From positions 1,662 to 65,661 of the forward strand of contig JAUYKW010000008.1 of NCBI GenBank assembly GCA_030698395.1: a stretch of 64,000 bases of DNA. The letters run 5' to 3'. Below are positions 32,932-41,829 of the stretch, in pieces. The notes beneath the pieces were generated by a model. The model was given only the letters and a program-made list of their open reading frames with translations, searched no databases and was not told where the DNA came from. Both the position numbers and the translations under genes were made by a program. Position 1 is the first letter of the stretch. Each line of letters begins with the position of its first letter. The stretch comes from a bacterium. GTDB lineage: Bacteria > Patescibacteriota > Patescibacteriia > UBA9570.

Positions 32932-34266
32932 ATGGCAGATCCATTTAAGCCAGGGAGTGTAGCAAGAAAAATAGATTCTGATGTTCCACCAGCTGAAGAA
33001 GATGACTTAGGTATTTCTGTTGAGCATGCTGCTGTTTTAGATCGAGCAGCTCGTTATGGTGATCTTGAGAATGATGTTGAAGAGGGCTTGAGTGAAGCAG
33101 AGAAAAAAAATAAGGTGGCAGAGCTGGCAACTACTTTTGCTAGTGAGGATCATAGATTTGATAGAGAATTGATGAATGCGATAGATATAAAGCTTGGTGC
33201 TAAACATATGGCCATGGAGCAAAGTCTATCTGGTTTCGTTGAATATATAAATGAACCTGATTTGGAATCTTGTAATAAATTATTGGAGATTTTTGGTGAA
33301 ACTAGAATGGAATTTGAGGAACGATTTGGATATTTAGAGATGTTCAAGAGTAGAATGCAACGATCAGAGTTTCCAGAAGTTCGAGCGATGGCGTTAATAA
33401 TTGAAAAATCATACGCAGCGATGCTGCAGTACGCAGATTTATTATCGGCAGCTGAGAATTTAATGGGTAAGATAAAGAACCAGGTCGAGATGACTGGATT
33501 ACCAGAAGATATTGCATTACAGCAATTAAAAAAATTGAGTAATAAAATAGCTACATTGTATCGAAATGAGCTCCACAAAGTCGGTAGAAATGTTCGTCAC
33601 GCGTTAGCGTACGAAGGATATCGTGCATATATTGATAGTACTGATGATAAAGAAAATTTAAGAGAAGGCGATGTTGATGAGGATTATCTTTATGAATCTG
33701 GGATAAAGTTGGATGATGTGAAATTAAATGAAGGAGATATAAAAACACTCCAAGCATTGGATTTTAGAATGAAAGGTAGAGTTGGAGCTATTACGACTGA
33801 GTTGTTTAATTCCACCAGCGAAGAGAGATTAGAAAAAAATAGACAATCACTAGAAACGATACAGAAAGTTAAAATGTACTTTCAGGATCGTATGCAAATT
33901 ATATCTGATATATTACCAACACTAAACGAGGCTGATTCTATCTTTTTGCAAGAATTGCACATGCCAATGAGAGAGTTCATTATAGAAATGGAAAATCTAT
34001 TTAGCGTTTTGGATCGAGCTATTGTTGAATTGAATAAGTTAGTAGAAAGTAATTTATCAATTGAAGATAGATCTCTAATACAAATTAAATTGGATGAAAT
34101 GCAGAATGAAGTTGAGAGAATTTATCAACAAAAACTACAACCATTTGCAAATGTGGTCGCTACAAATTTAGCTTATATGAAGTACCGTAAAGGCGTGACT
34201 GAAACTCAAAGAGACGAGACGCCTGAATTGGTAGGTGAAGATTATCAATTAAATGTTGCTAAGTAA
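32932..34266 (+). CDS. Hypothetical acidic, probably helical protein (444 aa) embedded in the aromatic operon.
   Basis: The ORF is intact in the host low-GC composition. No motifs were recognised. Confidence 0.4.
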   Translation: MADPFKPGSVARKIDSDVPPAEEDDLGISVEHAAVLDRAARYGDLENDVEEGLSEAEKKNKVAELATTFASEDHRFDRELMNAIDIKLGAKHMAMEQSLSGFVEYINEPDLESCNKLLEIFGETRMEFEERFGYLEMFKSRMQRSEFPEVRAMALIIEKSYAAMLQYADLLSAAENLMGKIKNQVEMTGLPEDIALQQLKKLSNKIATLYRNELHKVGRNVRHALAYEGYRAYIDSTDDKENLREGDVDEDYLYESGIKLDDVKLNEGDIKTLQALDFRMKGRVGAITTELFNSTSEERLEKNRQSLETIQKVKMYFQDRMQIISDILPTLNEADSIFLQELHMPMREFIIEMENLFSVLDRAIVELNKLVESNLSIEDRSLIQIKLDEMQNEVERIYQQKLQPFANVVATNLAYMKYRKGVTETQRDETPELVGEDYQLNVAK

Positions 34267-35871: not shown

Positions 35872-35900
35872 TTGACACTTTATAAAGTATAAATTATAAT
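35872..35900 (+). promoter_or_regulatory. Perfect consensus sigma70 promoter: TTGACA, 17 nt, TATAAT.
   Basis: The sequence is ttgaca-ctttataaagtataaat-tataat. Confidence 0.55.
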
Positions 35901-35906
35901 GTTCTT

Positions 35907-36095
35907 AAGTTTATGAATTTTATACACAGCAACAACTTATCTAAGCTTAAATGGACAGTGGTCTCTTCTATTAAGACACTGGTACGTATTTATTTACATA
36001 TAGCGCGGGCAAGGATAAGCAATGCAATTACATAAGTTGCATAATAAACAGAAAAGCTGCAACCTTAGCCCGCGAAAAAAACGCGGGATTTTTAT
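35907..36095 (+). ncRNA. Candidate ~190-nt small RNA or leader transcript, running from the consensus promoter to an intrinsic terminator. It contains a long imperfect stem (36003-36014 with 36063-36074) that competes with the terminator stem, and an optional 30-codon sORF.
   Basis: The promoter and terminator were read from the sequence, with no gene in between. It could not be matched to SRP RNA, 6S RNA, tmRNA or RNase P consensus motifs. Confidence 0.3.
36068..36095 (+). terminator. Intrinsic terminator: stem cccgcg / cgcggg, a 7-A loop, and a T-run.
   Basis: The sequence is gcccgcg-aaaaaaa-cgcggg-atttttat. Confidence 0.55.
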
Positions 36096-36230
36096 ATATT
36101 ATTTCTAGACTACTCGACTGGTATCCTCCGCACTAGTTGAGTCGCCTGGAAAGTAATTTCCAGATTATCGTTCTTTGTAAAGTATTTATCCCTATTTTTA
36201 GAAGTTATTCTGTTAATGGTGATAAAACAA

Positions 36231-36251
36231 TTTTAGAGGCAACGTGAAATT
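36231..36251 (+). repeat. Conserved leader box TTTTAGAGGCAACGTGAAATT, copy 1. Copy 2 is at 37283-37303, and a degenerate copy 3 is at about 37815-37835.
   Basis: Two copies are identical over 21 nt. Each lies upstream of a GC-rich ORF in the island. Confidence 0.6.
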
Positions 36252-36275
36252 AAATCTGGTTTAAAACGTAGCAGA

Positions 36276-36342
36276 GCGAGGAAAATGGTTTTTGTAGATA
36301 CGCGATTAATCGCGTATCTACGGATAAAAATATTTTCCTCGC
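36276..36342 (+). repeat. 67-nt inverted repeat. The outer arms are gcgaggaaaat / attttcctcgc. They enclose a perfect 28-bp palindrome, GTAGATACGCGATTAATCGCGTATCTAC (36294-36321).
   Basis: Read directly from the sequence. It lies about 80 nt upstream of the first GC-rich ORF. Confidence 0.7.
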
Positions 36343-36422
36343 TCCGGCTACCTAGTAGACCGGATTTCTCGGGTCATAGACCCATCCTCATACTCCTGCT
36401 GAAAAGCATGTGGAGATTCTCG

Positions 36423-37064
36423 ATGTCTGTTCGCCCTTCCAGTCCCTGCTCCAAGCTCGTCGTGCTCGCCGATGATGCTCCTGCCCTCTCCGTTCTCTGC
36501 GAGTTCATCGAGCCCAAGGCTATCGGTGGTCGCTGCATGTCCTTCGAAAGCACTCAGGTGCTGTTCTTCAACCGGAACAATCTGCAGGGCCTCGTGGCTC
36601 GGGTCGTGGTTCGGCGCACTGCTCGACCGCTCGGCGACAACATCGTATCTGTGCGCACGGTCGACGTGATCGTGGTGAACAGCGAAGATGATCTTCGACA
36701 CTACTTGCAGGACTCCCAGGTGTTGCATCTGCGCAGCACCGATCAGCGCCAGCCTGCCATGTACACCTTCACCCACAGCAAGATGTTCCCCAAGCCGCCC
36801 AGTGGTAGTGCTCACATCTGTCAGTTCGAGACTGGTCACCTGCAGAGTCACCTCCGGAACCTGGTGTCGGTTCTCTACTCGGGATGGTTCTCCCGCAAAC
36901 CGCAGGATGCCACGGTCTGCACGCCGAACAGCGCCATCGCCCAGATGTCTGGCTACATCGGACGTTCCACCCTGGCCTTCGAGGAAGGAGGTTATGGCGG
37001 AAGCGTGCAGTTCGGTCAGGACGACGCTTACGACGCGATCCGCGAGGACGGTTCTCGCTTGTAG
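36423..37064 (+). CDS. GC-rich (~60% GC) hypothetical protein of 213 aa, with strong G/C bias at codon third positions.
   Basis: The + frame has about 85% G/C at third positions with very few A, while all other frames look like wrong-frame GC-rich noise (R/P/S-rich). An SD (GGAGA) lies 8 nt upstream of the ATG at 36423. No known motifs were recognised. Confidence 0.5.
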   Translation: MSVRPSSPCSKLVVLADDAPALSVLCEFIEPKAIGGRCMSFESTQVLFFNRNNLQGLVARVVVRRTARPLGDNIVSVRTVDVIVVNSEDDLRHYLQDSQVLHLRSTDQRQPAMYTFTHSKMFPKPPSGSAHICQFETGHLQSHLRNLVSVLYSGWFSRKPQDATVCTPNSAIAQMSGYIGRSTLAFEEGGYGGSVQFGQDDAYDAIREDGSRL

Positions 37065-37080
37065 AAGAGCGAATAGAGGG

Positions 37081-37197
37081 CACGATTCGTCGTGGACAGT
37101 GATGGTAGACCGCATGACACCTCCTGTCGGGCTTCTTCTTTTCACGTTGCCCACCTCTCCTTTGTTTATCTATTAGCCCTTGCTAAATGGTAGAAAA
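37081..37197 (+). repeat. Conserved ~115-nt 3' trailer element, copy 1. H1 is CACGA-UUCG-UCGUG. H2 is gacag...ctgtc. H3 is gggc...gccc. Then follows ACCTCTCCTTTG and an AATGGTAGAAAA box.
   Basis: It is about 85% identical to 37633-37745, and a degenerate third copy is at about 38166-38240. Compensatory changes keep the stems intact: H2 is gacag/ctgtc in copy 1 and gacaa/ttgtc in copy 2; H3 is gggc/gccc in copies 1 and 2 and aggc/gcct in copy 3. Confidence 0.65.
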
Positions 37198-37320
37198 TAA
37201 GGTAAATAATGTAGTGGTAATAATTAGTCGTTCCTTTTATTTGTACTGGATGAATAACACTATTCTTTCAGTATTAACAGTATTTTAGAGGCAACGTGAA
37301 ATTCTAGCTGGTAATGTCCT

Positions 37321-37362
37321 AGGGTGAGGATATTGGTTTTATAACCAATGCCCCCACCCTGG
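37321..37362 (+). repeat. Conserved 5' leader stem-loop, copy 2: AGGGTG-AGGATATTGGTTTT-hairpin-ATGCCCCC-CACCCT. Copy 3 is at 37866-37919: TGTTGGGGT-AAGGATATGGGTTTTT-...-ATGCCCCC-ACCCCAACA.
   Basis: The closing stem differs in sequence but keeps its pairing in the two copies. A related AGGAAAATGGTTTTT motif sits in the 67-nt IR upstream of ORF1. Confidence 0.5.
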
Positions 37363-37620
37363 CTTACATTCGTAAAGCTGGAAATTGGGTTTCGACCCAC
37401 CCCTCAACCCCTCGAAAGGATCCTCCAGGTGGCTAAGAAAAAGCGGAAGAAGGAAGTTTGTAGAAGTGGTAGCAAGAAGATTCGTGTTGTGCAAATCAGC
37501 GATGCGGAACTTCGCAGGAGTACTATATCTGAGCTTTGTCGGAAGTATCATGGACGCATGGTCGTTGTTAACGGTCAGCGGTTCCTGATGACGAACGAAG
37601 AGCACAGCGAACACACCTGA
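37348..37620 (+). CDS. Small basic protein (63-90 aa depending on start), moderately GC-rich, a paralog of the 37933-38136 ORF.
   Basis: The ATG at 37348 lies inside the conserved noncoding ATGCCCCCACCC motif. A GTG at 37429 preceded by AAAGGA is a plausible alternative start. It shares ELCRKYHGRMVVVNG with EFCRRYNGQQVTIGS in the next ORF. Confidence 0.4.
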   Translation: MPPPWLTFVKLEIGFRPTPQPLERILQVAKKKRKKEVCRSGSKKIRVVQISDAELRRSTISELCRKYHGRMVVVNGQRFLMTNEEHSEHT

Positions 37621-37632
37621 GCAACCTGGGGT

Positions 37633-37745
37633 CACGATTCGTCGTGGACAATGATGATGGACTATTCGTCGTCACTTGTCGGGCTTCAACTCTTCACGTT
37701 GCCCACCTCTCCCTTGACTATTATCATTAAAAATGGTAGACAAAG
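37633..37745 (+). repeat. 3' trailer element, copy 2.
   Basis: See copy 1. The identical H1 hairpin cacgattcgtcgtg is present. Confidence 0.65.
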
Positions 37746-37932
37746 GATTGGTGAAAGTCATTCGTTCTTTATAACTAATGTGATGACTCACAATAATATT
37801 GTGATAGTTACTATTTTTTTCAGGCAATATGAATAGATCGTGGGCTAAACGTCCAAAAGGACTATGTTGGGGTAAGGATATGGGTTTTTCGATAAAAATC
37901 TATGCCCCCACCCCAACAAGTAAGGAGTGCTC

Positions 37933-38136
37933 ATGAATGCACCAGATGCTGAGCCCGGCGGTGTACGTGGCAGCGAGAGAGAGGTAGATCGAGACATGCA
38001 GAGATTTTCAGCGCGGGAGTTCTGCCGGCGTTACAATGGTCAGCAGGTCACTATCGGCTCCATGCGGATTCACATTCGCTACGAGCCCACTCCCTCGTTG
38101 CCGCGCGATCGGCCGGAGGCGCAGCTGTCCATCTAG
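37933..38136 (+). CDS. Small protein (67 aa) paralogous to the 37348-37620 ORF.
   Basis: A strong SD, AAGGAG, lies 5 nt upstream of the ATG at 37933. About 68% of third positions are G/C. The upstream ATGCCCCCACCCC motif is out of frame and terminated, so it is noncoding here. Confidence 0.45.
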   Translation: MNAPDAEPGGVRGSEREVDRDMQRFSAREFCRRYNGQQVTIGSMRIHIRYEPTPSLPRDRPEAQLSI

Positions 38137-38165
38137 GGCAGCGGAGGTTGTGGCTGGTGGTGCAG

Positions 38166-38240
38166 TCATAGACAAGATGGTAGGCTACGCCCCATCCTGT
38201 TAGGCTTACCGTTTTCATATTGCCTACCTCTCTTTTGATT
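38166..38240 (+). repeat. 3' trailer element, degenerate copy 3.
   Basis: It aligns to copies 1 and 2 over GATGGTAG...TCCTGT..GGCTT...TTTTCA..TTGCC.ACCTCTC.TTTG, with stem covariation. Confidence 0.5.
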
Positions 38241-38374
38241 AGCTAGTAAGCTAGTTGTTTAGAAGAGAGGTAAGTTTCAACAGGATCTTTCCCAAGTACG
38301 TTTAGTTGCACTAGCGACTTTGCGTCAACAGTTTTTTTGACAACGTCAGTTATGCACCTACCTAGCAGGAGGAG

Positions 38375-38467
38375 ATGGTAGGGAAGTTGCAGCAAGAGGT
38401 GCTGCAGGTGGGATTTTTCGTCTCCATCCCATTGGACAACCCGCTGACGTTGTCCCTTTCCTTATAA
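38375..38467 (+). CDS. Possible 30-codon sORF (MVGKLQQEVLQVGFFVSIPLDNPLTLSLSL) bracketed by an 11-nt inverted repeat (gacaacgtcag at 38338-38348, ctgacgttgtc at 38444-38454).
   Basis: An AGGAGG lies immediately upstream of the ATG. It is short and unsupported otherwise. Confidence 0.15.
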   Translation: MVGKLQQEVLQVGFFVSIPLDNPLTLSLSL

Positions 38468-38573
38468 ATATCATTTGTTGGTACTTATAAGGATTTGGAT
38501 AATTGTGAATAAGTTAAATAATATAAGTTGACTTATTAAAAAAATAATATATTCTTTATTTTAAGAAGTATTT

Positions 38574-38663
38574 ATGAATATTCTTTTTGCCCAAATAAAT
38601 CTTATTAGCATTATTAGCCTGCTTATTAGCCATGGTTCTTTGCGTTATGAACAAACTTAAGTA
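38574..38663 (+). CDS. Possible 29-aa hydrophobic peptide (MNILFAQINLISIISLLISHGSCVMNKLK), followed by a terminator.
   Basis: It is a short ORF in host-like AT-rich composition. An intrinsic terminator lies 25 nt downstream. No clear SD was seen. Confidence 0.2.
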
Positions 38664-38684
38664 AAAAAGTAATTCAAACGTAAA

Positions 38685-38713
38685 GAACCCTGTCAAATAT
38701 CGCAGGGTTTTTT
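38685..38713 (+). terminator. Intrinsic terminator: aaccctg-tcaaatatcg-cagggtt-ttttttt.
   Basis: Read from the sequence. Confidence 0.55.
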
Positions 38714-38811
38714 TATTGCCTCATTAATTTCTCCTTTAACAGGGGATGAGAACCGTACGGCGGTAGGAGGAGTCTATCGTTCTTCCTGTACGCTTCGGCA
38801 ACGAGGATACA

Positions 38812-39036
38812 ATGTACCGGCGCGGTACCTGGGAGTTTTATCAGTTCAACGCCGTGTTTCACGCTGAGCTGGTCAGGTGTTCGAATGGCATCGTGGCGCT
38901 GATGTGGCGCAACGAGGTGCACAAGACCGGTGCCAACGAAGTGACCATTGCGTACCGACGGTTCGAGCGTCAGCAGTGGAGCTTCTGGGCTCATTCGGCC
39001 ACAGGAGGCACCTGTGACACGTCCGCGGTCTACTAG
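38812..39036 (+). CDS. GC-rich hypothetical protein (74 aa) with high G/C at third positions.
   Basis: About 78% of third positions are G/C. A GGAGG lies about 45 nt upstream and the proximal SD is weak (GAGGAT). It is flanked by an inverted repeat: gcgagacggcgg (39083-39094) and ccgtcgtctcg (39137-39147). Confidence 0.35.
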   Translation: MYRRGTWEFYQFNAVFHAELVRCSNGIVALMWRNEVHKTGANEVTIAYRRFERQQWSFWAHSATGGTCDTSAVY

Positions 39037-39231
39037 CAGCTCCGAGAGCGTTGCTACGCCTGACGCAAATACGGAATCTCACGCGAGACGGCGGCATGGG
39101 TTGACTAGATGTATTTATGTACGTCTTGCTATCACCAGCCGTCGTCTCGACCGTTCATCTTATTTATTGTTTAATTTGCTCTAAGAAATAAAATCATTTA
39201 TACTCATTAAAGTTAAGTTAAAGGATATATC

Positions 39232-41829
39232 ATGCAAAATTCTTTCGAACAATTACAAAATTACCTTGCTAAAAATCCAGATTTAGTTGCAGAAACTACG
39301 CGGCGGAAGCGAACATTAGTTTACATCGCTGGAATGTCTTTGGATCAAGAGGAGCTTGCTAAGGTACGAGGTATTGAGTTTTACGAAGAACGTTTATTAT
39401 ACGTTGTTGGCTTATTACGAGATCCAAACACTAAGATTGTTTTTGTATCCTCAAAGCAAATTGATCCAGTTATTATTGATTATTATTTTGATTTATTTAG
39501 TAGATCTCAGAAAGAGCGGATTAGCATGGAGAAAAGATGGCATCATTTTTATATTGGTAATAGTAGAATTCATAAAACTTTAACTCAAAAAGTTTTAACA
39601 TCAAAACGGTTGGTTATTCAAATTAATCAGCAAATTGATAATACTAAGCAAGCTGTATTACGGTGTTTTAATTCGTCTGAAGATGAAAAAGCCCTAGCAG
39701 TTAAATTAAATATTCCTTTATATGCTCCAGATCCTAAATTTTTACATTATGGATCGAAATCCGGAGCTCGTCAGGTGTTCAAGCAAGCAGGTTTAAAACC
39801 ACCATATGGAGTAGAAAATATTACCTCAATGTTGGAGTTGATTAACTCAATTAGAAAAATTAAACAGCATGAGAAGGGGGTTGAACAAGTTGTTGTAAAA
39901 TTTGATTACAGCTTTTCTGGAGTAGGTAATGCTAATTTGACGGTAAGCAAATTTCCACGTACAAATGTAGCTGCCGAGAAGTACATTAAAACTCATCTTA
40001 AACCAAATGAATCAGATGTTACTGCGATTCAGTATTTAAAAAAGTTATTTGATATTGGTGGAATTGTTGAAACGTGGTTACAAGGAATACGAATCTTTTC
40101 ACCAAGTGTTCAGTTAGCAATAGATCCAGATAAGAGTGTCCGGATTATTTCTAGTCATGAGCAGTTGCTTGATGAAGAAACAAAACAAGTTTTTTTAGGA
40201 GCTAGATTTCCGGCTCGTAAATCGATGAGACAACCTTTGTTACTACAGGCAGAAAAGGTGGGAAAAGAATTAGCTGATGCAGGAGTGATTGGATTTTTTG
40301 GAATAGATTTTATTGCTGTGAAAGAGAAAACAAAATATGTTGCGTATCCTATTGAAATAAATTTGCGCAAAGGTGGAGCAACACATCCTTTTCAGATAGC
40401 TAGAATGTTAACGCAAGGTAGCTATAAAAAAGATGGAGCTATGCGTGATGATTCACGACAGAGGATTGCATATTATTCTTTTGATAACATTAAATCTACA
40501 GATTACGTTGGTTTGAAGCCTGAGGAAATTATTAAAATAGTTAAGCAAGCAGGGCTAGAATTTGATCATGAAAATAATGGTGGAGTTTCTTTACACTTGT
40601 TAGGAAGCTTAAAAAAATATGGAAAATTTGGTACAGTTTGTATTGCACGTTCACCACGAGCAGCTGAGCAATTATTTATCATTTTAACTAAGGTTGTTGA
40701 TGCGTATGTGGCACGAAAATCAGAAATTGAAATTGTTACACCTCAAGTAGTTTCTGTAAATCAAAAGAGATTGGTTGATACTTTTATAAAATTAGTTAAG
40801 ATTGCTAGTCCTTCAGGAGAAGAAGCAAAAATTAGATTATTGCTTAGAGAAGAATTAGTGAGATTGGGCGTAAAAACAAGAGTTGATAAGTCAGGAAATT
40901 TAATCGGTAAAAAACCAGGTGTAGGTACCGTACCGTTTTTGTTATCAGCACATATGGATACTGTAAAACCATGTGAAAATGTTAATCCCGTAATTAGGGG
41001 AAATACTATCATGACAGATGGCACTACTATATTGGGCGCAGACAACAAGGCTGGAATTGTATATATTTTGGAGCTACTGCGATTATTGCATGAATTTGAT
41101 ATTAAACATCGGCCATTAGAAATAGTAATGTCTGTCTGTGAAGAACAGTTTTCGGGTGGAGCAGACGAACTTGATGTTTCTAAATTAAAATCTCCAGTTG
41201 GTCTGGTTGTGGATGGTGCTGATTTAGGGGAGGTTGATTATATTTCACCTTATATAGCAACCATTAATGTATCTGTTATTGGTAAAGCTGCTCATTCTGG
41301 AGTAGAGCCAGAAAATGGTGTAAGTGCGATTCAGATAGCATCTAACGCTATTGCAAATATGCCATTAGGAAGACTTGATCATGATACGACTGCAAATATT
41401 GGCTTAATTACTGGTGGGACTAATAGAAATGCAATTCCAGATCGAGTAGAATTAGAAGGAGAAGTACGAAGTTTAACAAAACGATATTTAGAAGAACAGT
41501 TAGAGCGAATGCATAAGGCTTTAGAAGATGCTGCTGAGTTATATGGCGGGTTACTTGATATTTCTAGTAAGATAGCTGTTCAAGGTTACAAATTTTCCAA
41601 AAATGATCCTGATTTAAAGAAGATTATGCAGATTATGAAAGAAGTAGACATTAAACCAGATTTAAGGAAAGCTGGGGGTGGTTCAGATGCGAATGTATTT
41701 GTTGCTAGAGGCATAAAAACTATTGATGTTGGGACAGGTGTACAGAAGCCACATACTGTTGAAGAGAGTATAAAAATAGACGACATGACGAAGATGGTAG
41801 AATTTTTATTAAAGATTGTCCAAGTTTAG
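39232..41829 (+). CDS. Two-domain protein: an N-terminal ATP-grasp-type ligase domain fused to a C-terminal M20-family metallopeptidase domain (peptidase T/ArgE/DapE-like).
   Basis: The ATP-grasp signatures are VVVKFDYSFSGVGN (compare VxxKP..GSxGxGV) and GIDFIAV...YPIEINLRKGG (compare EVNxxPG). The M20 signatures are SAHMDTV, GADNKAG and IGKAAHSG. Confidence 0.55.
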   Translation: MQNSFEQLQNYLAKNPDLVAETTRRKRTLVYIAGMSLDQEELAKVRGIEFYEERLLYVVGLLRDPNTKIVFVSSKQIDPVIIDYYFDLFSRSQKERISMEKRWHHFYIGNSRIHKTLTQKVLTSKRLVIQINQQIDNTKQAVLRCFNSSEDEKALAVKLNIPLYAPDPKFLHYGSKSGARQVFKQAGLKPPYGVENITSMLELINSIRKIKQHEKGVEQVVVKFDYSFSGVGNANLTVSKFPRTNVAAEKYIKTHLKPNESDVTAIQYLKKLFDIGGIVETWLQGIRIFSPSVQLAIDPDKSVRIISSHEQLLDEETKQVFLGARFPARKSMRQPLLLQAEKVGKELADAGVIGFFGIDFIAVKEKTKYVAYPIEINLRKGGATHPFQIARMLTQGSYKKDGAMRDDSRQRIAYYSFDNIKSTDYVGLKPEEIIKIVKQAGLEFDHENNGGVSLHLLGSLKKYGKFGTVCIARSPRAAEQLFIILTKVVDAYVARKSEIEIVTPQVVSVNQKRLVDTFIKLVKIASPSGEEAKIRLLLREELVRLGVKTRVDKSGNLIGKKPGVGTVPFLLSAHMDTVKPCENVNPVIRGNTIMTDGTTILGADNKAGIVYILELLRLLHEFDIKHRPLEIVMSVCEEQFSGGADELDVSKLKSPVGLVVDGADLGEVDYISPYIATINVSVIGKAAHSGVEPENGVSAIQIASNAIANMPLGRLDHDTTANIGLITGGTNRNAIPDRVELEGEVRSLTKRYLEEQLERMHKALEDAAELYGGLLDISSKIAVQGYKFSKNDPDLKKIMQIMKEVDIKPDLRKAGGGSDANVFVARGIKTIDVGTGVQKPHTVEESIKIDDMTKMVEFLLKIVQV

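Follow-up and report, generated by a model that had tools for sequence, protein, structure and literature searches.

The 865-residue protein encoded at 39232..41829 (+) of the window, a 64,000-nucleotide stretch of Patescibacteria DNA, is a true fusion of a putative ATP-grasp amide ligase with a putative M20 peptidase. In the ORF listing it is the sole ORF of its span, with an ATG start and an uninterrupted frame up to the stop codon. The two modules, of ~500 and 357 residues, are separated by a short linker (Table 1), in good agreement with the ~480 and ~380 residues estimated in a preliminary description of this DNA, which had proposed the fusion. The protein is identical to NCBI MDP3970389.1, annotated as 'M20/M25/M40 family metallo-hydrolase [bacterium]', a name that covers the M20 hydrolase only. 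A search for the same architecture elsewhere yielded 17 clusters of full-length homologues from NCBI, Logan, and ENA assemblies (863-898 residues, 50-66% identity), as well as a more distant fusion, P0122, that is 43% identical. Because the ORF is continuous in all 17 of these independently assembled clusters, with the halves never split by a frameshift, the fusion is true rather than the artefact of a frameshift. The DNA comes from a metagenome-assembled genome, in which a frameshift or a chimeric contig could have joined two genes during assembly or gene calling, but we consider this exceedingly improbable and effectively already refuted: the continuous frame recurs in at least 17 clusters that trace back to separate samples and were built by different assemblers, the helix and linker are kept across the junction, and base composition is even along the gene.

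Table 1 Features of the fusion gene and of the region upstream of it (window coordinates).
Feature	Position	Strand	Details
Promoter and conserved leader	35872..36095	+	sigma-70-type promoter 35872-35900 (12/12 positions); terminator detected; putative link to fusion gene
Cassette A	36238..37163	+	arms, hairpin, orphan ORF
Cassette A, 5' arm	36238-36249	+	GGCAACGTGAAA
Cassette A, long hairpin	36294-36321	+	REP-like palindrome GTAGATACGCGATTAATCGCGTATCTAC
Cassette A, orphan ORF	36423-37064	+	213 aa, GC3 0.75
Cassette A, 3' arm	37140-37151	+	TTTCACGTTGCC, then CACCTCTCC tail
Cassette B	37290..37715	+	5' arm 37290-37301; ORF 37348-37620 (start uncertain); 3' arm 37692-37703 and tail
Cassette C	37823..38236	+	5' arm GGCAATATGAAT 37823-37834; 3' arm TTTCATATTGCC 38213-38224 and tail
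Cassette C, ORF	37933-38136	+	67 aa; preceded by Shine-Dalgarno; weak paralogue of cassette B ORF
Fourth GC-rich orphan ORF	38812..39036	+	74 aa, GC3 0.77; last ORF before fusion gene
ATP-grasp amide-ligase module (predicted)	39232..40731	+	aa 1-500; PGM1/BesA-like; PF24923, PF18105, PF02655; NF042917, 8yi6
ATP-binding strand and flexible loop	39886..39933	+	aa 219-234, V-V-V-K223-F-D-Y-S-F-S-G-V-G-N; aligns to BesA VKLD...IGN
Mg/ATP and catalytic site	40291..40389	+	aa 354-386, G-I-D359-F ... I-E375-I-N377-L-R379-K-G-G; aligns to BesA VDF...VEINLRKVG
Inter-domain linker	40732..40755	+	aa 501-508; pLDDT <50 at aa 502-504; alignment columns variable and gapped; sequence and length vary
PepT-like M20 di-zinc peptidase module (predicted)	40756..41826	+	aa 509-865; catalytic and lid/dimerisation domains; TIGR01883, PF01546, PF07687, 3gb0, 3rza

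The ligase module comprises a pre-ATP-grasp region, an ATP-grasp core, a PGM1_C domain, and a terminal long helix (residues 475-500). Its scores exceed the cut-offs for ATP-grasp_IQCH (PF24923, 76.3 bits versus a curated cut-off of 27), PGM1_C (PF18105, 30.3 versus 22.5 bits), and PF02655 (28.1 versus 23.2 bits), and profiles, fold, and residues all place it in the PGM1/BesA-related ATP-grasp clade (PF24923/PF18105). The L-propargylglycine--L-glutamate ligase BesA (PDB 8yi6) matches in sequence with an E value of 2.5e-39 and, in a Foldseek search with the AF2 model, with a TM score of 0.87 over 468 columns; the Streptomyces ATP-grasp peptide ligase 8ynd reaches 0.77. Residues 37-479 have fold and domain order in common with BesA and with the pheganomycin peptide ligase PGM1, together with the ATP/Mg motifs (VKxD...G-rich loop, DF...EINLRK), and the same chemistry would be expected, with an acyl-phosphate formed before the amide with an amino group. 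However, identity to these enzymes is only ~25-27%, and neither has the C-terminal peptidase that the fusion carries. The BesA model NF042917 spans residues 31-461 but scores 151.4 bits against an equivalog cut-off of 750, and the substrate of BesA is therefore not transferable to the fusion. No bes or pgm pathway genes lie near the fusion gene, with halogenase, PLP, and hydroxylase genes all absent nearby. To our knowledge, BesA is the sole characterised close structural relative of the ligase half. Across an alignment of 15 full-length homologues (49-66% identity, mean column identity 63%), invariant positions include K223, S227, F228, S229, G230, G232, N233, and A234 in the ATP-binding loop, D359, E375, N377, L378, R379, K380, G382, T384, H385, and P386 in the Mg/ATP site, and likewise H309-E310-Q311.

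The peptidase module passes the cut-offs for Peptidase_M20 (PF01546, 53.1 versus 24.6 bits) and M20_dimer (PF07687, 65.3 versus 21 bits). The PepT-like model TIGR01883, of which positions 1-360 of 361 align to residues 513-863, is passed marginally (277.8 versus 274.25 bits), and true peptidase T is excluded by score (TIGR01882, 81.7 versus 285.75 bits; PRK05469, 129.1 versus 255 bits). PepT-like M20B enzymes from B. cereus (3gb0; E value 2e-71, Foldseek TM score 0.81) and S. aureus (tripeptidase 3rza; 6e-58 and 0.87) align end-to-end with residues 509-865 at 34-38% identity. These relatives are stand-alone proteins of ~360-400 residues, unlike the fusion, and their TIGR01883 clade ranks as a 'hypothetical equivalog' to which no substrate has been firmly assigned. 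Their metal ligands, catalytic Glu, and lid His are all present: H574, D604, E638, D661, and H841 are the predicted metal ligands and E637 the general base, in motifs that align with 3gb0, and these residues, D576, and the lid H688 are invariant in the 15 homologues. H574 and D576 fall within HMDTV, D604 within GADNKAG, and H688 within GKAAHSG. The preliminary description had singled out these three motifs along with the ATP loop and GIDF...IEINLRKGG, and all five proved to be the functional ones, without variation among the homologues, so each half is a domain of catalytic type in which all key residues are conserved. Because all catalytic and metal residues are invariant at 49-66% identity, both activities appear to be under purifying selection. 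A free-standing M20 protein is 56% identical to the fused M20 half, so an M20 half of this kind can evidently work on its own. The AF2 model of the fusion protein has a pLDDT of 86 and a pTM of 0.58, with the mutual orientation of the two modules not confidently predicted.

The ATP-grasp/M20 architecture is genuine but rare, and is limited to one small clade. Only 3 of 1.84 billion cluster representatives are of this fusion type, the labelled ones originating from Patescibacteria MAGs. Scanning metagenomes with a fusion-specific segment recovered one more fusion (L093) and 79 stand-alone ligases, and a scan of genome contigs with the full alignment returned no fusion, its matches being dominated by stand-alone PepT-like genes. 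Genome L267 has lost the ATP-grasp core in frame (residues ~200-400) and retains an intact M20 half. The searchable literature on topics including PGM1, BesA, IQCH, amidoligases, and Patescibacteria integrons contained no account of an ATP-grasp/M20 fusion, and the preliminary description likewise knew of none.

From the sequences we infer, with confidence that is evenly balanced, that the fusion is a bifunctional enzyme in which both halves would be active on one small-molecule amide system of a shared, glutamyl-type class. In such an enzyme, the N-terminal module would bind ATP-Mg and phosphorylate a carboxylate to give an acyl-phosphate, which the amine of an amino acid or peptide N-terminus would attack to form an amide bond, while the C-terminal module would use two zinc ions and the general-base glutamate to hydrolyse an amide bond of a short peptide-like substrate. 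The substrate system would most probably be a small amino-acyl or γ-glutamyl di-/tripeptide-like amide; the enzyme could both make and degrade a single compound, or could attach an amino-acid 'handle' that is later removed, around other steps.

The ligase family is repeatedly coupled to amide hydrolases, and these have unrelated folds. In P0210, a ligase of the same family is fused to an AstE/AspA deacylase domain. At 82 stand-alone ligase loci, same-strand upstream genes encode AstE/AspA in seven cases (81-116 nt away in six, 919 nt in one) and a CPG2-like M20 in four, a γ-glutamyltransferase (GGT) passing the TIGR00066 cut-off lies downstream in three, and a divergent class-I GATase-like gene is found at two; a hydrolase neighbour is present at only ~16-18 of the 82, many of the contigs being short. 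It is because ligase relatives recurrently adjoin or are fused to unrelated amide hydrolases that we favour a make-and-break or protect/deprotect role. Members of the AstE/AspA, CPG2-like M20, GGT, and GATase-like families for the most part liberate glutamate or split γ-glutamyl or N-acyl-Glu/Asp bonds, and the product of BesA is reportedly a γ-glutamyl dipeptide; the glutamyl-type class is proposed on these two grounds. Several observations weigh against a make-and-break role. If a ligase and a hydrolase acted on the same bond, they would run a futile cycle in the absence of regulation or of intervening steps, and no conserved modifying enzyme lies near the fusion gene in the neighbourhoods of related genomes examined. 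The fused M20 belongs to the PepT-like (aminotripeptidase-type) clade, whereas the M20 beside stand-alone ligases is CPG2-like, and no PGM1/BesA-type ligase lies within 6 kb of any of the 80 stand-alone PepT-like genes closest to it. The small share of stand-alone ligase loci with a hydrolase neighbour, the shortfall from the BesA equivalog cut-off, the L267 variant without an ATP-grasp core, and the stand-alone M20 of 56% identity point in the same direction.

Glutathionylspermidine synthetase/amidase (GspSA) also combines an ATP-dependent amide-forming domain with an amide-hydrolysing domain in one polypeptide. The resemblance noted in the preliminary description is reasonable as a working principle, and is strengthened by the ligase-hydrolase partnering, but it does not extend beyond that principle to family membership: GspSA consists of a CHAP cysteine amidase followed by GSP_synth, whereas the fusion places the ligase before the hydrolase. 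Membership is rejected because a Pfam scan at E values up to 1 found no match to GSP_synth or CHAP in the fusion protein, the folds belong to different, unrelated families, and the domain order is reversed. Ligase/hydrolase pairs of two proteins include LysX (ATP-grasp) and LysK (M20) of the LysW carrier pathway, carnosine synthase (ATP-grasp) and carnosinase (M20), and PuuA/PuuD in γ-glutamylation. In each, as proposed for the fusion, a ligase attaches an amino-acyl or glutamyl group that a metallo- or amidohydrolase removes, and the first two pairs use the same ATP-grasp and M20 folds. However, all are separate proteins, from other ATP-grasp and M20 subfamilies than the fusion; models of [LysW]-lysine hydrolase score 46.8 bits against a cut-off of 363, and no carrier protein or intermediate enzymes are linked to the fusion gene. 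Nothing was found in support of the peptidoglycan peptides, polyglutamate, or cyanophycin suggested earlier as substrates. Bifunctional make-and-break amide enzymes are few and usually mark a regulated metabolite, such as glutathionylspermidine, and a conserved 2.6-kb example in genome-reduced Patescibacteria would suggest that these symbionts contain a small-peptide or γ-glutamyl metabolite that has so far escaped notice. The PGM1-related ligases of ~525 residues form a very large uncharacterised family with thousands of members, on which the fusion and the hydrolase partners offer a handle.

Other roles can be drawn from the same domains. PepT-type enzymes remove N-terminal residues, and the M20 half could trim the N-terminus of a ribosomal peptide or small protein to which the PGM1-like half ligates an acid or amino acid, or adds terminal residues, in a RiPP-like maturation with the upstream cassette proteins as substrates. 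The founding protein of PF18105, PGM1, is a ligase that attaches an acid to the N-terminal end of ribosomally made peptides, and branches of ATP-grasp enzymes that are strongly associated with peptidases but lack an evident precursor are on record (PMC8939145). Small same-strand ORFs lie directly upstream of the fusion gene at all loci, but their products have no common N- or C-terminal motif or leader of the kind expected of graspetide or other RiPP precursors, most of the cassette proteins are mutually unrelated and lack family matches, and their extreme GC3 suggests foreign cassette genes rather than co-evolved substrates. Moreover, the substrates of M20/PepT-type enzymes are very short peptides and not proteins of 70-210 residues, and we regard such maturation as unlikely. 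A small ORF in the leader is itself disfavoured as a RiPP precursor, because the leader is conserved at the level of nucleotides and structure and not of reading frame.

Patescibacteria are scavengers with reduced metabolism, and the two halves might instead work in series on different bonds, the M20 taking an amino acid off tripeptides that have been imported and the ligase at once building from it a dipeptide or conjugate that the cell needs, for example an aromatic amino acid in storable or soluble form. The tripeptidase-like clade of the M20 half would suit this salvage role, as would the position of the locus behind a shikimate/Phe/Tyr operon (DHQS, EPSPS-SK, DHQase-SDH, chorismate synthase, PDT, PDH, CM) in seven genomes. 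Yet this aro neighbourhood is missing in the P0015 lineage, a variable island and a terminator intervene between operon and fusion gene, and the pairing of stand-alone ligases with deacylases and GGT would be left unexplained; salvage coupling is in our view quite unlikely. It is still more improbable that the halves were joined by chance without functional coupling, or that one is dead and serves as a scaffold or oligomerisation module. The confinement to one small clade, the pTM with its unsettled domain orientation, and the natural variant devoid of the ATP-grasp core would agree with chance fusion, but the invariance of catalytic and metal residues in both halves at 49-66% identity argues against it, as does the independent fusion or adjacency of the same ligase family to other hydrolases.

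The fusion gene lies at the right border of a GC-rich island, as described earlier (GC 0.345-0.360, versus 0.46-0.51 for the 3 kb on its left; GC3 0.22, versus 0.55-0.77 in the island ORFs). The adjacency stands, but the island is more than the mere neighbour it had been taken for, as its position beside the fusion gene is conserved in every related genome examined. In eight independent genomes, an attenuator-like leader and cassettes of GC3-rich orphan ORFs directly precede the fusion gene. This association is the newest part of our findings. The leader, conserved in the window and in L001, L089, L093, and L003, contains an invariant TTATGAA and a terminator with a T-run at 36069-36087. A competing antiterminator helix, in which ~36003-36014 pairs with 36063-36075, shows compensatory changes and forms in the minimum-free-energy fold of the window copy. 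Many cassettes are bracketed by covarying inverted arms, GGYAACG/CGTTRCC, with compensatory changes in both arms of cassette C relative to cassettes A and B. The final 103 nt of cassette B share 76% identity with the last part of cassette A, and the fourth orphan ORF has no recognisable GGYAACG-type arms. Extreme GC3 marks the cassette ORFs as probably foreign. A homology search with cassette A found nothing beyond itself, and the cassette proteins have no Pfam or PHROG families and no phage tblastn match. Since Rfam searches (the whole window at the gathering threshold, the island at an E-value threshold) returned nothing meaningful and no tRNA or tmRNA was found, the island is not rRNA, tRNA, or known ncRNA.

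The island resembles integron arrays and CALIN in its tandem, co-oriented short orphan ORFs of foreign composition behind a strong promoter, bounded by repeated imperfect inverted repeats in which complementarity rather than sequence is conserved, and in the conserved inner AAC...GTT triplets of its arms. However, its complementary arms bracket the ORFs 270-900 nt apart, whereas attC is a compact site of 60-140 nt that follows the ORF; by inspection, GGYAACG/CGTTRCC does not fit the attC consensus RYYYAAC/GTTRRRY; and in eight genomes the array is found with one particular gene downstream of it. Because of the misfit in arm geometry and consensus, and because no integrase lies nearby and no recombinase in the flanks at the loci of related genomes examined, we reject integron or CALIN membership. 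Invertible segments are not favoured either, because all eight arm-bounded units have the same orientation. One conceivable, though unlikely, interpretation is that the fusion gene, rather than lying at a passive integration hotspot, forms the fixed downstream end at which an undescribed Patescibacteria gene-cassette platform is anchored, the enzyme processing, tagging, or detoxifying cassette products, or the region upstream of the gene acting as a capture site. Such a platform would comprise a consensus promoter and attenuator leader, then turnover-prone foreign orphan ORF cassettes (GC3 0.55-0.91), with the ligase-peptidase gene always last. Independently of the enzyme's role, the fusion gene marks a site at which orphan genes of foreign appearance build up, flanked by a regulated promoter on one side and a conserved gene on the other; should this be a means of capture, a lineage regarded as genetically streamlined would have a new way of acquiring genes. 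Two candidate cassette signals were rejected: a tRNA-like CCA end behind the 3' arm is not conserved, and the palindrome GTAGAGACGC-N8-GCGTCTCTAC is present in 93 viral contigs that differ in GC content and resembles a common hairpin of the REP type.

The gene at the right of the GC-rich island is a single open reading frame that encodes both an ATP-grasp ligase module and an M20 metallopeptidase module. In Pfam, the first half of the protein matches PF24923 (IQCH-like/PGM1-type ATP-grasp, 76 bits), ATP-grasp_3 and, at residues 434–481, PGM1_C, and residues 570–864 match Peptidase_M20 and M20_dimer. The NCBIfam model TIGR01883, 'PepT-like protein', matches residues 513–863 with 277.8 bits (cut-off 274.25), and the model for BesA, the L-propargylglycine–L-glutamate ligase, gives a sub-threshold match to residues 31–461 (151 bits, cut-off 750). 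The best matches among solved structures are BesA (PDB 8yi6) for residues 37–479 of the ligase half (2.5e-39) and the PepT-like structures 3gb0 (2e-71) and 3rza (6e-58) for residues 509–864 of the M20 half. An AlphaFold2 model calculated with 15 homologues (mean pLDDT 86, pTM 0.58) predicts two well-folded modules, connected via a long helix that runs into a short linker of low confidence (residues 502–504), and leaves their relative orientation uncertain. Foldseek TM scores, relative to the target, are 0.81–0.87 for 3gb0 and 3rza; in the ligase half, BesA scores 0.87 and a Streptomyces ATP-grasp peptide ligase, 8ynd, scores 0.77. Together, the domain, structure and Foldseek matches to both halves bear out the preliminary description, in both its observation of an ATP-grasp/M20 fusion and its domain boundaries.

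An identical protein at NCBI, MDP3970389.1, is named only 'M20/M25/M40 family metallo-hydrolase [bacterium]'. Sixteen more clusters, from differing NCBI, Logan and ENA assemblies, are full length (863–898 aa, 50–66% identity), and the fusion clusters with a taxon label are all 'Patescibacteria group bacterium'. In an alignment of 15 of the full-length homologues, with a mean column identity of 63%, the ATP-grasp half has invariant K223, S227-F-S-G-x-G-N-A234, H309-E-Q311, D359, E375, N377 and R379-K380, which line up with the BesA motifs for ATP/Mg and for catalysis. Invariant residues in the M20 half (H574, D576, D604, E637-E638, D661, H688 and H841) line up with the matching conserved motifs of 3gb0. 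The catalytic residues and metal ligands singled out earlier for checking are thus conserved throughout, and full-length homologues with invariant active sites from several assemblies rule out a frameshift artefact; the two halves are not split in these assemblies. By this alignment, both modules are seen to retain intact sites, one of an ATP-grasp ligase and the other of a di-zinc M20 peptidase, and both catalytic centres are under purifying selection. A natural variant of the fusion (P0121, from GCA_040960315.1) has lost residues ~200–400, the ATP-grasp core, in frame, with the N-terminal region and M20 half intact. A stand-alone M20 gene (P0123) with its own start codon is 56% identical to the fused M20 half and is preceded by ~100 nt of non-coding, hairpin-forming sequence, on a 1.2-kb contig too short to reveal any ligase gene upstream.

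When 1.84 billion cluster representatives (50% identity) were searched exhaustively with HMMER, only three proteins of the fusion type stood among the best 150 matches: P0012, the clade representative; P0121, the deleted form; and P0122, with 858 aa and 43% identity. Every other protein among these 150 matched one half alone. Metagenomes scanned with a segment specific to the fusion, containing the motifs LRCFN and SFSG[VG]GNA, yielded one extra fusion, at locus L093, and the remaining 79 kept loci were stand-alone ligases. The genome-collection scan returned no fusion, only stand-alone PepT-like genes with at best 47% identity, and none of these 80 genes had the ligase within 6 kb. With three fusion proteins in the HMMER matches, one more in the metagenome scan and none in the genome scan, the fusion is, judging from these searches, rare and an innovation of a single small lineage. 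A literature search found no paper on an ATP-grasp/M20 fusion.

Sequence places the protein in the PGM1/BesA-related ATP-grasp clade and the PepT-like M20 clade. Identity with BesA is rejected by the bit score of 151 against 750, and the protein was also rejected as peptidase T proper. The likeness to glutathionylspermidine synthetase/amidase (GspSA) drawn earlier holds for the kind of enzyme, a bifunctional amide synthetase/hydrolase, but not for family membership, and the fusion is a new domain combination inside this known kind. A ligase–hydrolase theme newly visible in a very large uncharacterised family, and the conserved cassette island, add to its interest.

That family, to which the ligase half belongs, has thousands of members of ~505–560 aa, labelled 'peptide ligase PGM1-related', with 35–41% identity to the query and spread over many phyla. 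Two further fusions of the same ligase arose independently of the ATP-grasp/M20 fusion, one with an AstE/AspA (succinylglutamate desuccinylase/aspartoacylase) domain (P0210, 833 aa) and one with WD40 repeats (P0165, 803 aa). We clustered the gene neighbours of 82 genes for stand-alone ligases (~525 aa), many of them on short contigs, and a hydrolase partner was visible at only about one-fifth of these loci. AstE/AspA genes lie 81–116 nt from the ligase gene at six of their seven loci and 919 nt away at the other, and two additional ligase loci have a weaker AstE/AspA match. The partners belong to four unrelated hydrolase folds in like position (table), which is the pattern of non-orthologous displacement and argues that an amide hydrolase is the usual working partner of the PGM1-related ligases. 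Their recurrence suggests a general, undescribed ligase–hydrolase system. The partner hydrolase families mostly cut γ-glutamyl or N-acyl-Glu/Asp bonds, and the product of BesA is a γ-glutamyl dipeptide. Because of these usual bonds and this product, our best guess for the substrate class of the fusion enzyme is a glutamyl-type amide.

In the mechanism that we propose, the ligase half would bind ATP-Mg through K223, the loop at residues 227–233, and D359, E375 and N377, form an acyl-phosphate on a carboxylate and join this to an amino group; R379 is the putative stabiliser of the transition state. In the M20 half, E637 would serve as the general base for hydrolysis of a short peptide-like amide, and the dimerisation domain would contribute the lid residue H688. 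We favour a reading in which both halves act on a shared substrate system, so that one small amino-acyl or γ-glutamyl compound may be both synthesised and degraded or, alternatively, an amino-acid handle may be put on and later taken off. The nearest working analogues are GspSA, LysX/LysK, carnosine synthase/carnosinase and PuuA/PuuD.

Several points stand against a shared substrate. The fused M20 domain is of the PepT-like clade, whereas the M20 enzymes beside stand-alone ligases are CPG2-like; no conserved intermediate enzyme was found near the fusion gene; and a ligase and hydrolase acting on the same bond need regulation, or they would run a futile cycle. The rival explanations are maturation of a ribosomal peptide, in which M20 trimming would be followed by PGM1-like ligation, coupling of the two activities in salvage, and a fortuitous fusion. 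The shared-substrate reading remains the one we prefer.

Coordinates of the fusion gene, its relatives, ligase partners and elements of the island
Feature	Location	Strand or position	Remarks
Fusion ORF	window 39232-41829	+	865 aa, ATG start, sole ORF of the span
Deleted fusion variant (P0121)	L267 7257-9131		
Stand-alone M20 gene (P0123)	L266 103-1230		
Ligase–AstE/AspA fusion (P0210)	L092 54-2555		
GC-rich island	window 36100-39200; L001 6560-8000; L003 6650-7990; L089 4740-7000; L090 4425-7000; L091 1-1677; L093 3690-5580; L267 4900-7250	directly upstream of fusion gene	
Leader	window 35872-36095; aligned L001 6300-6565, L089 4495-4735, L093 3445-3685, L003 6480-6650		
Leader promoter	window 35872-35900		
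Leader terminator	window 36069-36087		
Palindrome	window 36294-36321; L089 4832, 5449, 6100; L093 3842		
DnaA-box-like sequence	L001 ~6283; L089 ~4487; L093 3401-3428	just 5' of leader promoter	not obvious in window
Unassigned ORF	window 32932-34266		444 aa
AstE/AspA partner	L101, L111, L122, L129, L133, L144, L169	upstream, same strand	7 loci
Glutamate-carboxypeptidase-like M20 partner	L123, L151, L154, L160	upstream, same strand	4 loci
γ-Glutamyltransferase partner	L100, L102, L104	downstream	3 loci; passes TIGR00066
Class-I GATase-like partner	L007, L008	divergent	2 Bacteroidota-type loci

The GC content of the fusion gene is 0.345–0.360, like the rest of the window, and that of the 3 kb on its left is 0.46–0.51. 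The position of the gene at the right border of a GC-rich island, in AT-rich composition, is therefore as first described, and, in addition, eight independent genomes (the window, L001, L002-4, L089, L090, L091, L093 and L267) all have such an island directly upstream of the gene. In genomes with composition profiled, the GC content of this stretch is 0.55–0.75, compared with 0.33–0.50 for the surrounding genes. Beyond the island, on its far side, five of the eight genomes and also L270/L271 have a shikimate/Phe/Tyr operon. Other genes occupy this side in L002-4, so that the island accompanies the fusion gene and not the far-side neighbour, in an association that may be functional or positional. 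The island ORFs are small and co-oriented, many with good Shine-Dalgarno sequences, and look foreign, with a GC3 of 0.55–0.91 against 0.22–0.45 in the fusion genes. Comparison with Pfam, PHROG and phage sequences gave no match for them, and cassette A of the window matched only itself among 5.8 billion proteins. A cassette family with the motif LPCGC...HTRCG occurs in L089 (two copies) and L091, and the two homologues with retrieved context, from three genomes, are all at a like type of locus.

Eight units in the islands are bracketed by complementary arms with the consensus 5'-GGYAACG... / ...CGTTRCC-CCTCTC-3'. Across 12 arm positions, 96% of cells pair and six pairs have changed on both sides, a covariation score equalled by none of 500 shuffles, in a measure biased by the arms having been picked by hand. 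The 3'-arm motif has six copies in the fusion loci, all inside the island on the + strand, and ten in 2.3 Mb of other loci. Three units that were folded did better than shuffled controls (z-scores -4.7 to -7.3). No Rfam family matched in the island, and no recombinase was found near it. A canonical integron was rejected, as there is no integrase and neither the geometry nor the consensus of the arms fits, and an invertible segment was not favoured, as the island bears no sign of inversion.

All islands examined open with a conserved small transcription unit, the leader. In the window, its promoter scores 12/12 (a perfect TTGACA-17-TATAAT), and the leader includes an invariant TTATGAA. The 5' half of the terminator stem has an alternative pairing partner in a segment upstream of it, and the helix between the two carries compensatory changes across genomes. 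A competing antiterminator of this kind is what marks an attenuator, and the leader looks like one. The reading frame of a 19–44-codon ORF inside the leader is not conserved. The palindrome GTAGAGACGC-N8-GCGTCTCTAC (window variant GTAGATACGCGATTAATCGCGTATCTAC), which lies within some of the units, was rejected as a cassette-specific element, since it is widespread in viral contigs: it occurs in 93 contigs of IMG/VR (L173-L265; GC 0.40–0.63), often in several copies, against a chance estimate of ~2 contigs. It looks like a widespread REP-type hairpin beginning GTAG.

Several minor features were also seen. In four leader copies, a Tyr codon coincides with or immediately precedes the antiterminator strand, and DnaA-box-like sequences TGTGGATAA / TTATCCACA occur at three loci. 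GC skew is positive in nearly all 1-kb bins of window 1-64000, and cumulative skew climbs almost unbroken with small dips near 4–5, 11–12 and 36–37 kb, which places the window on one replichore with neither origin nor terminus in view. Within the shikimate/aromatic amino-acid operon of the window, a 444-aa ORF with no Pfam match lies between the genes for chorismate synthase and prephenate dehydratase, and related loci have unannotated ORFs of 168–224 aa at its position.
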